A stretch of 64,000 nucleotides of DNA, taken from contig JBBQVG010000001.1 of assembly GCA_038211765.1 (NCBI GenBank), forward strand, positions 1,837 through 65,836. Direction: 5' to 3'. Positions 32,166 to 37,350 of this stretch are shown piece by piece. A program made the translations under genes and the position numbers. The DNA comes from Minisyncoccia bacterium (GTDB taxonomy: Bacteria; Patescibacteriota; Minisyncoccia; Phycocordibacterales; PALSA-1337). Under the pieces are notes generated by a model. That model saw nothing but the letters and a program-made list of their open reading frames with translations. It was not told the DNA's origin and searched no databases. The first letter of the stretch is position 1; every line of letters begins with the position of its first letter.

Positions 32166-32254
32166 GGAGAGATGGCTGAGTGGTCTAAGGCAGCGGTTTA
32201 CTAAACCGCCGTTCCCTCACGGGAACCGTGGGTTCGAATCCCACTCTCTCCGCA
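32166..32254 (+). tRNA. type-II tRNA with Ser-like identity elements but anticodon loop UUACUAA (nominal anticodon ACU)
   Basis: Aligns position-by-position to tRNA-Ser: acceptor GGAGAGA/TCTCTCC, D-arm TG-GCT-GAGTGGTCTAA-GGC, anticodon stem GCGGT/ACCGC, long variable arm GTTCCCTCACGGGAAC, T-arm GTGGG-TTCGAAT-CCCAC, G73. The anticodon is unusual. Confidence 0.6.
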
Positions 32255-32420
32255 ATTTTTTCGAAAAATTTGCGGCAGTTTTTACTTGAAGTTCGAACAT
32301 TTTTTGGTGAAAATCCGTGCACCTGAATCATTGCGCCTCACATTCGCTCGGCGCTCGGAAAGGGCGGACGGCGGCCTGGGGAGGAATGCGGGCGGTTTTT
32401 TACCTTTCCTTTTTGATGGA
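32254..32420 (+). repeat. mosaic intergenic repeat, left copy (modules R3 + core + R1)
   Basis: 32254-32310 is the reverse complement of 37290-37345. 32365-32420 is the reverse complement of 34280-34340. Core 'agggcggacggcggcctgggg' resembles 'agggcggaacggaggactgggg' (as the reverse complement of the right copy, 37137-37350). Confidence 0.7.
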
Positions 32421-32464
32421 ACGGGGCATTGAGAAAAAAACCAGAAAAATGTTAATATAATTTT

Positions 32465-33070
32465 ATGAAAATATTTGCTTTCATCGATGTGCAAAATACT
32501 GAAACAACAACACTAAAAGTGTTGAAATTTGCTCTTGACCATGAGAAATTATTTTCTTATTTAAAAAACAAATGGAAATGTGAAAAAATATTTTTCTATC
32601 CTGGGATTCAACATGGTGATGATACTCGTGGGGAATTATTTACTAAACTTGCGGAACTTGGTGCGGTTGTACGACCAAAATATTTTTTCACATATAAAAA
32701 TGAAGACAAAATCACCATCACAAATTGTCCAAAGTGTAATACTGAAATTACACAGAGAATAGAAACAGGTTACTCGTGGAAATGTAATTGCGATGTCGAG
32801 TTGACAGCAGATGTGCTCGACCACGCAGACAAAGACACCGAGATATTTCTATTCTCTGGTGATGGTGATTTTGAATTCTTAATTCAAAAAGTTATAGCAA
32901 AAGATTGTAGAGTTTCTATTGTTTCTAGCGCGAAAAGAGTGCCCAAGGGACCTAGGTATTCTACTTCTAGATTGTCAACAAAACTTCGTAAGCTTACTCA
33001 AGCGAGCGGTTCACCTGTAAGATTTATTGAGATCGATAACCTGAAGTTTAAGATCAAAAAAGAAGCCTAG
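32465..33070 (+). CDS. NYN (LabA-like, PIN-fold) domain protein with Zn-ribbon insert
   Basis: 'MKIFAFIDVQN' and 'IFLFSGDGDFEFLI' are the NYN Asp motifs. 'CPKCNTE...WKCNCD' is a zinc ribbon. Confidence 0.6.
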   Translation: MKIFAFIDVQNTETTTLKVLKFALDHEKLFSYLKNKWKCEKIFFYPGIQHGDDTRGELFTKLAELGAVVRPKYFFTYKNEDKITITNCPKCNTEITQRIETGYSWKCNCDVELTADVLDHADKDTEIFLFSGDGDFEFLIQKVIAKDCRVSIVSSAKRVPKGPRYSTSRLSTKLRKLTQASGSPVRFIEIDNLKFKIKKEA

Positions 33071-33210
33071 AAAAGGAAAAAGCCGCGAAGCGCGACTTTT
33101 TCTAAGGACGATATAAGTATATATGAATTACAGAAAAAGTCAATCAAAAAACAAATTTTGTAAAAAAACTAGTGTTTGTTTAGGTAAATTGTGGTATAGT
33201 ATATACACTG

Positions 33211-35217: not shown

Positions 35218-36090
35218 ATGAAGACTACTAAATATAAAATCGCGCTAGCAAGCGCATGTGGTGCGGCTATCGGTTACTGTTTCGGGACAACACTGTTGTC
35301 TGGAGCATGGCTGATTCTGGCGGCATTGTTGGGCGGAGCCTGCGGATGGATCATCTTCGATCCTCGTGGGTTCGGGAAGGCTTTCTCGCAAGCCTTGCTG
35401 GAGGTTAGCAGTGAGGCCAGTCTTAAATTGCAAGAATTGTGGGCCGAACCGTGGAGGAAGATCCTACCGCGAGCCATCAGGTTTACGGTTGATCCGCTTC
35501 TGATGCTCCAGGTAATGGGGACGATAATGGCATTCATCGTAATTCCATTCACAAAGCCTGGCAATCTATTGACTGCTTGTGCCGCGTGCTACGTAATAAC
35601 CCTTGGGCTAGGTTCGTTTTTGTCCATAGCCTTTTTCATCCAGGAGATTGGCGACAAGGCAGCTAGGGTAAAAGTGCTTGATCCCGAACGAACCTGTTAT
35701 CTATTCACTGGTAAAATGTCCGCATTCAAGTTCCTTGCCTTGACCAATCCGATTGTCCTACCGTTCACAGCGCTATGGCTTCTGATCAAGGCTATGTATC
35801 ATTGCGCTAAGGGACTTATCTGGATTGTCCGCCGCATTCCGCTCATCACCAGATTCTGCTGGCTCGTCACTGCAAAGACGTGCGTGTTGGCCCACAACAA
35901 TGGCCGGCTCGCTAGTTTCGCAGGAGCCAGCATCGGTGCCGTTATTGGTGTAATTGCAGGACACCTCATTATCGCCATGGCGGTTGGTGCGGCGATTGGC
36001 ACTCTGGCACATTATGTGGGTGCCATCTTCCCGAATGCCTACATCAATATTCTCGTCCAAAATCTCGAAACCGAGAAGACGAGACTTTGA
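35218..36090 (+). CDS. hypothetical polytopic membrane protein (7-8 TM)
   Basis: 290 aa, highly hydrophobic (e.g. 'TLLSGAWLILAALLGGACGWIIF'). Antisense ORFs there are spurious. Confidence 0.5.
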   Translation: MKTTKYKIALASACGAAIGYCFGTTLLSGAWLILAALLGGACGWIIFDPRGFGKAFSQALLEVSSEASLKLQELWAEPWRKILPRAIRFTVDPLLMLQVMGTIMAFIVIPFTKPGNLLTACAACYVITLGLGSFLSIAFFIQEIGDKAARVKVLDPERTCYLFTGKMSAFKFLALTNPIVLPFTALWLLIKAMYHCAKGLIWIVRRIPLITRFCWLVTAKTCVLAHNNGRLASFAGASIGAVIGVIAGHLIIAMAVGAAIGTLAHYVGAIFPNAYINILVQNLETEKTRL

Positions 36091-36159
36091 CCGGCAAAAT
36101 GAAGCAAGCAGTTAGAGTTTGTCACGACCCGCTCTACGTTCAACCGTAGGCGGGTTTTT

Positions 36160-37104
36160 TCACATCTTTTTACTTTCAAAATCAATCAAATCTGTGAAGA
36201 AGTCAGTATTTGGCGCATACGCATATTTATGAGAAAAATTTACATAATATAAATTATGCTTAAAAATATCTCTTTTATTATCCAGTTTTTGATACTCGAC
36301 TTTTCCGTGCATATCTTCAGTAAATGGAAAAGATAGAATAATGAAAACTCTAGGAGACAAATTAAAGATTTGTGTTTTAAGTAACCATGCCCCACGCAAC
36401 ATATAATTTTCTGGAATGCGTGGATCCATTAAGTCGATCACCGCTTCATCACTTGTTATAAAAGGATAATCTGTAGTATTTAGAAATATTTTCCATTCCT
36501 TATGGGTCAGTGTATTTGCATGACCAACATCAAAAGCTCTTTGTGTTGCATATGACGTTTTTCTAGTGACTCTCTGTAGTCCGTCTTGTGACACTTTGTC
36601 TGTGATTTCTTTATCCCGCTCTTTGTCATTAAACATATCGGGGTATTTTCTTGAAACCTCATTATAAATGTGCTCACTAACCGCAGGTTGCATCCAATCC
36701 ACGAGTTTTTTAAGCATATTCATTGATTCGTTTCTAAAGTTCTGACCTCGAAAGAAAAAATTGGCAATGATGCAGGAAAGACCGAATCTATCAGAGTCAC
36801 ATAAATTTTCTTGGTTCAAAAAAGACTTCTCGATTCTCTGTATGTTGTCTCCGTACCAAGTCTCAAGATTTCCAAACGCAGCTTCTACTGCCTGACTGTA
36901 CTCGTCTTCTACGCCTAGCTCTAGAGCATAGTGAAAATGTCCACTGCACACCGATTTAATCGACTGATTCTTACTTAAAACCTTAATCTGGTCACAGTCA
37001 AAAGCCTTAAGCTTATTTTGGTCATTAAAAATAGAAAAATTCTTTAGATGTCTTTGAGGTACAATATGTTGATTTTTCGTTACGTGATTTTTCACTATTA
37101 GCAT
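36160..37104 (-). CDS. hypothetical protein, DUF4238-like (N-terminal H-[IY]-VPQ motif)
   Basis: 'NQHIVPQRHLKNFSI' resembles the DUF4238 N-terminal 'HYVPQ..L..F' motif. 27% GC gene. Confidence 0.4.
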   Translation of the reverse strand: MLIVKNHVTKNQHIVPQRHLKNFSIFNDQNKLKAFDCDQIKVLSKNQSIKSVCSGHFHYALELGVEDEYSQAVEAAFGNLETWYGDNIQRIEKSFLNQENLCDSDRFGLSCIIANFFFRGQNFRNESMNMLKKLVDWMQPAVSEHIYNEVSRKYPDMFNDKERDKEITDKVSQDGLQRVTRKTSYATQRAFDVGHANTLTHKEWKIFLNTTDYPFITSDEAVIDLMDPRIPENYMLRGAWLLKTQIFNLSPRVFIILSFPFTEDMHGKVEYQKLDNKRDIFKHNLYYVNFSHKYAYAPNTDFFTDLIDFESKKM

Positions 37105-37136
37105 TACGCTAGCATTTTTTGACTAAAATTTGAAGC

Positions 37137-37350
37137 TACTGGAGGCTTTTCAGAACCACCTCCGCGAACGCGTAAGGGCGAAAACAAATAGCGAGGGCGG
37201 AACGGAGTCCTTCCCCCACAACCCCAGTCCTCCGTTCCGCCCTCTCCTTGTTTTGAAAGATTTTTCAGAAAATCAGGCATCAGGATTTTCCTCAAAAAAT
37301 GTTCGAACTTCGTCCAAAAACTTCCGCAATTTTTTCGAAAAAATTGGAAA
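37137..37350 (+). repeat. mosaic intergenic repeat, right copy (R2 + 15-bp perfect hairpin + R3, inverted relative to left copy)
   Basis: Contains 'gagggcggaacggag-N28-ctccgttccgccctc'. 37290-37345 is the reverse complement of 32254-32310. Confidence 0.7.

Follow-up and report, generated by a model that had tools for sequence, protein, structure and literature searches.

The Escherichia coli enzyme TnpAREP acts on single-stranded DNA, which it cuts at C|T to either side of the hairpin of a repetitive extragenic palindrome (REP), and transfers strands in vitro (PMC3479197), and Y1 relatives are diverse and often have flanking repeats of their own (PMC6006769). Some insertion sequences (ISs) specifically enter extragenic palindromes (PMC1525189; PMC12288879). 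Natural competence and frequent gene exchange have been documented in Patescibacteria (PMC11665869; PMC12455944); mechanisms of this exchange beyond competence and a few prophages are undescribed, natural plasmids have not been found (PMC12455944; PMC11665869), and the literature searched provided no description of systems in these bacteria that combine REPs with a REP-associated tyrosine transposase (RAYT). Here we report on a segment (positions 32254-37350) of a 64-kb stretch of a Minisyncoccia bacterium (contig JBBQVG010000001.1; the whole stretch of 64,000 nt is referred to as the window), which represents a hypervariable accessory-gene locus downstream of a tRNA-Ser gene in a genome of the ultra-small Patescibacteria and in which GC-rich hairpin elements border two gene cassettes. 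The loop of one of these elements, U1, is interrupted exactly at the hexamer CTGGGG by a 1,983-nt cassette (cassette 1) that encodes an NYN-domain protein and an Ig-like protein and carries a hairpin element of its own, HB. Our favored, still tentative explanation, to which we assign slightly less than an even chance, is that hairpins with this type of G-rich loop (G-loop hairpins) are recombination sites at cassette borders and that cassette 1 entered the U1 loop at C|TGGGG through HB; that an enzyme acted on it in trans is speculative.

The split unit U1 and the hairpin element HB

Three inverted repeat pairs were found in the segment, namely A/A′ (32253-32316 versus 37283-37346, 56/64 nt identical), B/B′ (32376-32428 versus 34286-34338, 53/53, or 55/56 over 32373-32428), and C/C′ (34358-34432 versus 37153-37228, 92% identity over 76 nt). 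Their ungapped scores range from 40 to 54, and the best score is 54, whereas 100 Markov-1 shuffles of this 7-kb region yielded no score above 16; the three-site modular repeat with inverted relationships that the first-pass annotation of this DNA had described is thus present in the sequence. Except for one degenerate copy near 30505-30586, the repeat modules are absent from the rest of the window. All breakpoints of homology fall at CTGGGG (32376-32381 and 34359-34364, as well as 34333-34338 and 37222-37227, where it reads CCCCAG). Rather than three copies of a single mosaic repeat, the left, middle, and right sites are better read as junctions between GC-rich hairpin elements of two types. 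A/A′ and C/C′ belong to two inverted copies of a single unit of approximately 200 nt, designated U, which bracket the second cassette (cassette 2).

Unit U starts with the tRNA-trailer module A; after a spacer, this is followed by a GC stem of 15 bp, a 22-nt loop (GACTGGGG(T/G)TGTGGGGGAAGGA), the return stem, and a flank designated z. A profile (nhmmer) built from U2, the intact inverted copy in this segment, and from two metagenomic copies, L009 and L008 (loci outside the window are given L numbers here where they need to be told apart), matches U2 on the minus strand at 37112-37356 with an E value of 2e-77. The perfect 15-bp hairpin noted in the first-pass annotation was found in U2 at 37193-37207/37230-37244; it encloses a loop of 22 nt that reads GACTGGGGTTGTGGGGGAAGGA on the minus strand, and module A′ is located at 37283-37346. 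The other copy, U1, is present on the plus strand in two parts. U1-left (32253-32381, with the profile match extending to 32382; profile positions 15-144, E 4e-13), which was also aligned with U2, contains module A (32253-32316), then a diverged middle part that includes an 18-nt module w (32336-32353), and finally the left hairpin arm y (32357-32375) followed by the core CTGGGG (32376-32381). U1-right, which represents module C (34359-34459; profile positions 138-252, E 2e-15), contains the core CTGGGG, a G-rich loop, the right hairpin arm (34378-34392), and flank z. Together, the two parts make up a single split unit; they overlap by 6-7 nt (profile positions 138-144) at CTGGGG, and removal of the insert yields a rebuilt unit that is colinear with U2 (84% identity over 213 nt). 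The insert is cassette 1 (32377-34359, plus strand), which is AT-rich and has C|TGGGG at both sides.

The two ends of cassette 1 were found to contain the two halves of HB. The B arm (32376-32428, plus strand) is the right half of HB and consists of CTGGGGAGGAATG, CGGGCGG, and a T-rich flank; it is located directly upstream of a promoter-like site for the NYN gene (TTGAGA-18-TAATAT with TG, 32429-32458) and is homologous to a hairpin upstream of NYN in L028 and L031. The right junction of cassette 1 (34286-34364, plus strand) contains the B′ arm (34286-34338) and the HB center, with the hairpin CATTCCTCCCCAGACCCAGTA/TGAGAGAATC/TACTGGGG, and shows 83% identity over 76 nt to positions 5-79 of L031 in the same orientation. 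In L031 and L028, which are the two contigs with the closest NYN genes, HB is intact, GC-rich, has CTGGGG in its G-rich part, and is located 64-67 nt upstream of NYN; in L028, this hairpin has a 10-bp stem with CTGGGG in the loop. When the right end and the left end of cassette 1 are joined at CTGGGG, the resulting sequence is colinear with positions 1-165 of L031, which contain the hairpin followed by the start of NYN (83% identity over 149 nt, which is approximately the identity of the NYN gene itself). The joined ends recreate the order found in L031, and cassette 1 therefore represents a circular permutation of HB, NYN, and the second gene, opened inside HB. The B/B′ repeat stems from HB itself, since HB and its flanks are palindromic; B and B′ are the two sides of this palindromic hairpin element, brought along by cassette 1.

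Comparison with a Nomurabacteria chromosome (L020) provided additional evidence on the origin of cassette 1. The NYN gene (32465-33070, plus strand; 201 aa; Pfam NYN, E 3e-12) encodes a protein that is 93-94% identical to proteins of Nomurabacteria/Patescibacteria, and its DNA is 86% identical over 707 nt to L020, where the gene is found in one stable chromosomal context (8 places). It is followed by a terminator hairpin (33076-33102) and by the gene encoding a membrane-anchored Ig-like protein (33211-34134, plus strand; Pfam Kre9_KNH, E 7e-8, and Big_7), which likely starts at the ATG at 33259; the promoter and N-terminal anchor of this second gene show 81% DNA identity to the gene after NYN in L020. 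Homologues of the distal part of B (32418-32427) and of B′ are present in L020, each at the matching end of the NYN gene pair; that of B′ is located just downstream of the second gene of the pair (8404-8498). Because of these identities, and because of a GC content of 0.30-0.40 as compared to a window mean of 0.46, cassette 1 is considered foreign, of Nomurabacteria-like origin, and acquired horizontally. A perfect 17-nt inverted repeat (ATGTGAAAAAATATTTT) is located inside the NYN coding sequence (32578-32594/32677-32693) and is kept in L020 (6114-6130/6213-6229). In another NYN locus, L032, a 155-nt direct repeat (86% identity; 1-153 and 3307-3460) brackets NYN, a glycosyltransferase gene, and a Fic gene; it could represent paralogous gene ends or another cassette boundary.

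A perfect 53-nt inverted repeat around two cargo genes without a transposase, with CTGGGG at both sides, is also what would be expected if cassette 1, or the whole 5.1 kb, were a non-autonomous transposon with terminal inverted repeats (TIRs), such as a MITE (a miniature transposable element with inverted repeats) with cargo or a mobile insertion cassette, mobilized by a transposase in trans; the presence of NYN homologues on many short contigs, as expected beside repeats, fits this explanation as well. The junctions argue against it. If the B repeats are taken as tips, the flanks (GGCGGC and ACCCAG) differ and no target duplication is present; only an asymmetric choice of the ends yields a duplication of CTGGGG. 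Homology to U resumes 20 nt beyond the right repeat (26 nt if CTGGGG/CCCCAG is counted as flank), so that excision would leave 20 extra nt (ACCCAGTATGAGAGAATCTA), a stretch that represents native HB sequence in L031. Moreover, homologues of B′ and distal B are found at the matching ends of the NYN pair in the stable context of L020, the B arm is absent from 185,579 GTDB representative genomes (the lone match being a chance match in an Armatimonadia gene with 64% GC), and no transposase with matching ends was found. We thus consider a TIR transposon decidedly unlikely. The first-pass annotation had proposed a TIR-bounded mobile module with MITE-like ends; an accessory block beside a tRNA is retained from this proposal, and a single TIR element is not, since tips, target duplication, and restoration fail and a transposase is lacking.

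Assembly was also considered as a source of the structure, since the contig is metagenome-assembled, the composition of cassette 1 is foreign, and the perfect inverted repeat is 53-56 nt long. A length of 53-56 nt is close to a common assembler k-mer size. U- and HB-derived sequences, however, have only 6 nt in common at the left junction and approximately 20 nt at the middle junction, which is too short for a de Bruijn join at the usual k, and both reconstructions are exact; a chimeric contig joined through shared repeats is therefore highly improbable.

The G-loop hairpin family, its possible role in recombination, and a candidate enzyme

The motif G4-7/N1-5/G4-8/AA occurs 7 times in approximately 190 kb (the window and the retrieved loci together), each time in one of these hairpin elements. 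Five of the seven motifs are flanked by perfect stems of 10-15 bp, as counted by script, with four different stem sequences; for comparison, stems of at least 9 bp flanked only one of 3,000 random placements. The remaining two motifs are the recombinant middle site and the long-arm form in L031. Loops of the G-loop hairpins are 21-23 nt long. Two hairpins in L005, a locus of a relative, have unrelated stems (GGGCAAAAA and GAAAAAGCG) and nearly identical loops (GGAAGGGGGTTGGGGGGAAGGAA and GAAGGGGGGTTTGGGGGGAATTT). Intact units fold with z scores of approximately -4.5 versus shuffles (U2, -4.4 to -4.7), as compared to +0.7 for the hybrid left site (U1-left). These data show a real structured nucleic-acid element with a conserved loop and covarying stems.

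Such an element could also be a structured RNA or a protein-binding cis element (an insulator-terminator or a regulator) whose position at cassette borders is incidental. The conserved loop and covarying stems would fit this explanation, as would the fact that in four cases (including DUF4238, a SocA-like gene, and NYN) a hairpin or half-site precedes an accessory gene by 64-95 nt, with its G-rich loop on the sense strand. Promoter-like hexamers, however, were identified between the hairpin or half-site and the gene for both NYN and the SocA-like gene, suggesting that the hairpin is not so much a 5′ leader as a boundary of the terminator type or one at the DNA level, and the next same-strand gene after the L005 hairpins is 350 nt away. 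Searches against Rfam 15 (window positions 29000-40000, L005, L028, and L031) yielded only tRNAs and sub-threshold chance matches, and an RNA function would leave the split hairpin and the hybrid sites unexplained. It is thus more likely that the hairpin element is read as DNA or as a terminator than as a regulatory RNA, and a purely cis-acting role is very unlikely. Of the structured regulatory RNA family that the first-pass annotation had offered as an alternative, the conserved loop with covarying stems stands; a regulatory RNA is not supported by Rfam, and the B half-site lies upstream of the likely NYN transcript.

For the recombination reading that we favor, cassette 1 would have entered either as a circle or as a piece with HB on both sides, and its G-rich HB tract would have exchanged strands at C|TGGGG with the U1 loop in single-stranded form. 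The circular-permutation scar has the topology of a single crossover between a circle and the chromosome; a double crossover with an HB-flanked donor would give the same result. The empty U1 would be expected to read ..GGCGGCCTGGGGTGTGGGGGAATGA.., and a circular or tandem junction of cassette 1 would read ..GAGAATCTACTGGGGAGGAATGCGGGCGG... More generally, G-loop hairpins may represent recombination sites at the 5′ boundary of accessory cassettes that are equipped with promoters.

The main rival to this reading involves no dedicated machinery. In this case, the hairpins would be terminators or tRNA trailers, transformed DNA would have been integrated by RecA-dependent or illegitimate recombination at G-rich microhomologies, with breakage favored at hairpins, and the inverted copies would be by-products of paralogous tRNA-Ser trailers and rearrangements. 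Several observations are consistent with this explanation: module A follows both tRNA-Ser genes of the window, and L005 keeps a 10-nt tRNA 3′ remnant beside its module A′; the U stem is followed by T-rich tracts on both strands; the G-rich arm of HB and the U loop have approximately 20 nt in common, which is sufficient for microhomology joins; the segment lacks a recombinase; and competence is widespread in Patescibacteria (PMC11665869). On the other hand, the loop is conserved over four unrelated stems, which points to loop recognition rather than to a generic terminator, and loops of 21-23 nt are unusual for intrinsic terminators; the hairpins designated L005a and L028 have no T-tract directly after the stem. 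The same hexamer is found at both junctions, the scar is a clean circular permutation, and a copy of U with 96% identity is found in an unrelated context without a tRNA. We consider this explanation somewhat unlikely.

No recombinase, transposase, or integrase was found among the segment proteins (Pfam, PADLOC, and PHROGs). In the window, where Pfam scans covered 59 of the 62 open reading frames (ORFs) of at least 100 aa, the only candidate enzyme for single-stranded DNA hairpins is a RAYT-like Y1 HUH protein of 195 aa, which is encoded on the minus strand at 56474-57061, 19 kb from the segment (Pfam Y1_Tnp, 35 bits versus a cut-off of 23) and carries the HUH motif NHFHII as well as YIHLNP. 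It is speculative that this enzyme acts on the G-loop hairpins in trans; since TnpAREP cuts at C|T, cleavage at C|TGGGG would match the scar. The gene is flanked by ACAAGACCTACCCTTGTAC repeats, with three full copies (57067, 57173, and 57245) and one partial copy (56465-56482); the 11-mer core of this repeat occurs 7 times in the window as compared to 0.02 expected occurrences, and a REPIN-like inverted doublet is located at 5078/5113, upstream of a DUF4143 ATPase gene. One REP copy continues as GGTCTTGGGGATGAAT versus GGTCTGGGGA(A/G)(T/G)GAAT in HB, a similarity of 16 nt with z scores of 3.0-4.6. An AlphaFold model of the Y1 protein computed with no alignment had a pLDDT of 39, and a phmmer search of the protein against PDB yielded nothing useful. 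The link between the RAYT-like enzyme and the G-loop hairpins is weak and should be seen as a lead, not a result. A relative's locus, L001, lacks a RAYT-like gene at this place.

Additional features were observed around the RAYT-like gene, which is located between two pilin genes (region 56394-57270). One ACAAGACCTACCCTTGTAC copy with 2 mismatches is found inside the LigA coding region (61937-61957). Repeats of the motif AAAAAATGTTCAA precede the RAYT-like gene (57106-57166); the motif has 13 nt (GAACATTTTTTGA) in common with module A (32291-32310 and 37289-37308); it could be a protein-binding or promoter motif.

A number of findings weigh against recombination at G-loop hairpins, and against the involvement of the RAYT-like enzyme in particular. 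Only a single insertion event is clear and hairpin copies are few, and a second independent cassette in a loop was not found; further repeat copies were not found in GTDB representative genomes, viral contigs, plasmids, phages, or protein collections. No donor cassette with intact HB at both sides was seen and no circular form was observed. Similarity at the crossover is short (6-20 nt), and enzyme-free microhomology recombination leaves the same scar. The perfect 53-nt complementarity of B and B′ exceeds the imperfect palindromy of HB in L031; possible reasons include gene conversion between the arms and collapse of near-identical arms by the assembler. Duplication of unit U in inverted orientation around cassette 2 is outside what the insertion of cassette 1 accounts for. 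With regard to the enzyme, the best NCBIfam match (REP-associated tyrosine transposase, 41 bits) is below the cut-off of 80, the cognate repeat core AAGACCTACCC is absent from 32254-37350, the similarity of the G-rich tail of another REP copy is not significant, and none of the five G-loop hairpins has GT[AG]G at its 5′ foot. A more specific proposal, in which Patescibacteria would capture cassettes by HUH chemistry instead of an integrase, with a domesticated RAYT-like enzyme pasting single-stranded circles into resident G-loops (..CTGGGG..GGGGGAAGGA) at C|TGGGG, is unlikely; G-loop hairpins with a conserved loop and free stems would then be attachment sites, cassettes equipped with a promoter and such a hairpin would travel from genome to genome as these circles, and the system would be a functional analogue of integrons in ultra-small bacteria.

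The locus presents a base-resolved scar, with a foreign cassette in a hairpin loop and the cassette's own hairpin split around it, and a small hairpin family, constant in the loop and variable in the stem, that borders accessory, defence-like genes in several genomes. If these hairpins are recombination sites, accessory cassettes in Patescibacteria could be searched for by this signature, genetic tools would gain natural landing pads, and REP/RAYT-type systems would have a new role; if they are mere terminators with one illegitimate recombination, the locus would be an ordinary variable region beside a tRNA.

Cassette 2, the tRNA-Ser genes, and variability of the locus

The segment begins directly after a tRNA-Ser gene with anticodon ACT (32166-32253, plus strand; identified by ARAGORN; Rfam tRNA, 56 bits). 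Repeat sequence starts directly at the end of this gene, at 32253/32254, in agreement with the first-pass annotation, which had placed the start of the segment at the tRNA 3′ end. With its last bases, CCGCAA, the tRNA contributes the left arm of a palindrome of 26 nt (32250-32275, 24/26) that extends into the start of module A. This tRNA-Ser(ACT), with the loop TTACTAA, stands beside a normal tRNA-Ser(GCT) and is also found in L001 (4776-4865), whose SOUL protein is 86% identical; in bacteria, A34 without modification is unusual apart from tRNA-Arg(ACG).

Cassette 2 (34460-37111, both strands) was delineated between U1 and U2 by ORFs, Pfam matches, and composition. It contains two membrane-protein genes on the plus strand (34725-34988 and 35218-36090), a terminator identified by a terminator search (36133-36160), and an AT-rich DUF4238 gene on the minus strand (36160-37104; Pfam DUF4238, E 2e-22). 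Proteins encoded by the two membrane-protein genes matched no Pfam family, and no homologues of the cassette 2 genes were found among the fetched relatives; a proposed correspondence of the 290-aa membrane protein, as a native gene, to a 286-aa protein of L001 was dropped, as the two show no similarity. Genes had been assigned in the first-pass annotation as encoding an NYN protein, a membrane-anchored repeat protein, a multi-pass (7-8-TM) membrane protein, and a DUF4238-like protein, and these assignments held; PHROGs provided zero matches for all segment proteins. With regard to composition, that annotation's two very AT-rich cassettes were recovered in part: cassette 1 (GC 0.30-0.40; 32.4-34.3 kb) and the DUF4238 gene (GC 0.33-0.39; 36.2-37.1 kb) are the only AT-rich parts, whereas the two membrane-protein genes (34725-36090) have a host-like GC content of 0.41-0.53, close to the window mean. 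Cassette 2 also includes two hairpins unrelated to the repeat family, one with 21-nt arms that are 90% complementary (35115-35166), just upstream of the gene for the 290-aa membrane protein, and one with 15-nt arms (34477-34511), directly after U1. The ORFs that had been attributed to the repeats (34207-34434, 34374-34571, 37104-37295, and 37130-37405) do exist; the longest, a 91-aa ORF over U2 (37130-37405), has no relative in 1.84 billion protein representatives, and a search with a six-frame composite of the repeats found no pseudo-protein relatives.

The inverted copies of U around cassette 2, together with B/B′ around cassette 1, raise the question of whether the repeats are sites for programmed DNA inversion, as in an inverton or shufflon that flips cassettes. 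Four sites with the core CTGGGG..GGAA(T/G)G do occur in alternating orientation (+ - + -), and each cassette is located between inverted repeats. No invertase, however, was found among the 59 of 62 scanned ORFs in the window, cassette 1 has its own promoter-like site so that flipping would change nothing obvious, and inversion cannot create both a sequence q and its reverse complement at the two ends; we consider inversion the least probable of the explanations discussed here. A diversity-generating retroelement was rejected, as there is no reverse transcriptase and mismatches between repeats are not confined to A positions.

The other tRNA-Ser gene of the window, tRNA-Ser(GCT), is directly followed by U0, a degenerate copy of U at approximately 30505-30586 (plus strand), which was recognized by sequence reading, by an nhmmer match to its z part (E 0.004), and by an 18-nt match to A′. 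In U0, module A is joined to flank z of the L009 type and the hairpin is missing. The presence of module A after both tRNA-Ser genes indicates that it is the usual 3′ flank of tRNA-Ser genes here. An AT-rich gene of 221 aa (30608-31273; GC 0.32-0.38) follows U0 and shows a weak PADLOC match to PDC-M04A (E 1e-7), representing a candidate defence protein; U0 and this gene (30493-31273) are a second small foreign insertion next to a tRNA-Ser.

Positions 37181-37329 of U2 are 96% identical over 149 nt to L009 and L008, which come from metagenomes and lack a tRNA. In these two loci, the element is located between a DUF1761 gene and a SocA-like gene and there is no other similarity to the window; L008 and L009 have 224 nt in common at 99% identity and then diverge on one side. 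They are the only true relatives among the metagenome hits to the hairpin-arm pattern, as 10 of the 12 hits were chance matches in high-GC contigs. Module w, which is located between A and the stem in U1, is found outside A in L008. The mosaic nature of the modules described in the first-pass annotation is borne out by this arrangement, and parts of the repeats are found elsewhere in other gene contexts. On the same contig as the stand-alone U of L009, four copies of a palindromic 29-nt unit (TTCCCGATGCACCTTGCGGTGAGCGGGAC) are present at 3173-3469 with a spacing of 77-104 nt.

The segment is adjoined by a gene for a SOUL protein, whose homologues belong to Patescibacteria. In relatives whose SOUL protein is 82-86% identical, the genes found from tRNA-Ser/RecG to TspO/SOUL are quite different; these include a photolyase gene and DPRP in L001, a methylase/helicase block in L005, and other genes in L004. 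The segment therefore represents a lineage-specific filling of a variable locus, and the first-pass annotation was right to call it an accessory module. In L001, both tRNA-Ser genes are present and none of the repeats. In L005, the place of the segment is taken by a restriction-modification-like block (253-7320) with genes for an HTH protein, an N6/N4 methylase, a ResIII helicase, and a 779-aa protein; it is followed by the two G-loop hairpins (6935-6981 and 7009-7059), a palindrome (CCGCCAGCTGGCGG), module A′, the 10-nt tRNA-Ser 3′ remnant, and then TspO. In L004 (7540-7830), the 3′ end of tRNA-Ser(GCT) recurs within 160 nt, with a direct copy of its last 21 nt (7680-7700, 21/21) and an inverted copy (7608-7625, 18/18), and a degenerate third copy is found at 7792-7829. 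These copies look like leftover attachment sites of integrative elements and suggest that the tRNA is a recombination hot spot in this lineage.

Comparison with known systems

tRNA-linked integrase islands resemble the segment in that a compositionally foreign block starts at a tRNA 3′ end, and L004 carries classical partial copies of the tRNA-Ser 3′ end. The segment differs from such islands, as it includes no integrase and no partial tRNA copy at its far end; partial copies of the 3′ end of either tRNA-Ser were absent from the window at up to 3 mismatches. A direct repeat that had suggested such an island (32249-32272/37323-37346; 24 nt, 23/24) was rejected as a by-product of the palindrome CCGCAATTTTTTCGAAAAATTTGCGG, and it covers only the last 5 bases of the tRNA (32249-32253).

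Similarities to integron attC sites include small gene units with imperfect palindromic hairpin sites, a conserved structure with variable sequence, and the topology of a circle entering a site. Unlike integron cassettes, the cassettes described here have their own promoters and are found on both strands, and the crossover is in the loop, leaving the site split around the cassette. No IntI or other integrase family was found among the 59 of 62 scanned ORFs of the window, and a regular-expression search of both strands of the three sites identified no attC boxes (RYYYAAC/GTTRRRY).

The pdif modules of Acinetobacter plasmids are bounded by Xer sites, with inverted half-sites around modules and composite sites between neighbors. 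A comparable pattern, (A|B) module (B|C) module (C|A), is found here; in contrast to pdif, a dif-like 11-6-11 site is missing, arm length is 50-76 nt, and the locus is chromosomal and beside a tRNA.

Members of the IS200/IS605 group insert beside a short specific sequence, need no target duplication, and have ends that are not functional TIRs, all of which is similar to cassette 1, as are the circular junction predicted here and the use of hairpins as recognition elements (PMC6006769). Cassette 1 differs from these elements in that it lacks tnpA/tnpB and carries ordinary cargo (NYN and Ig-like genes only) and in that the target is in a hairpin loop. ISs that target REPs (IS1397, ISKpn1, ISPpu9/10, and IS621) also represent foreign DNA inserted specifically into extragenic palindromes, but the DNA inserted here encodes no transposase.

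Finally, the locus shares with REPs, BIMEs, and REPINs the GC-rich palindromic intergenic hairpins, their alternating orientation, and their mosaic combinations; as in a REPtron, the window has one copy of a Y1 HUH gene that encodes HUH and Tyr motifs and is flanked by repeats of its own, and the C|T at which E. coli TnpAREP cuts is part of the crossover hexamer (PMC3479197; PMC3333891). The G-loop hairpins differ from REPs in the absence of a 5′ GT[AG]G foot, in the conservation of the loop instead of the stem, and in their apparently low copy number (two core sites in 64 kb), and the repeats that flank the RAYT-like gene differ in sequence from the hairpins of the segment. To our knowledge, REPs do not carry gene cassettes. 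The locus is best described as a set of accessory cassettes that meet at G-loop hairpins of a REP/BIME-like kind, and as a variant of known themes, in which extragenic palindromes serve as recombination targets and cassettes follow a cassette-with-hairpin logic.

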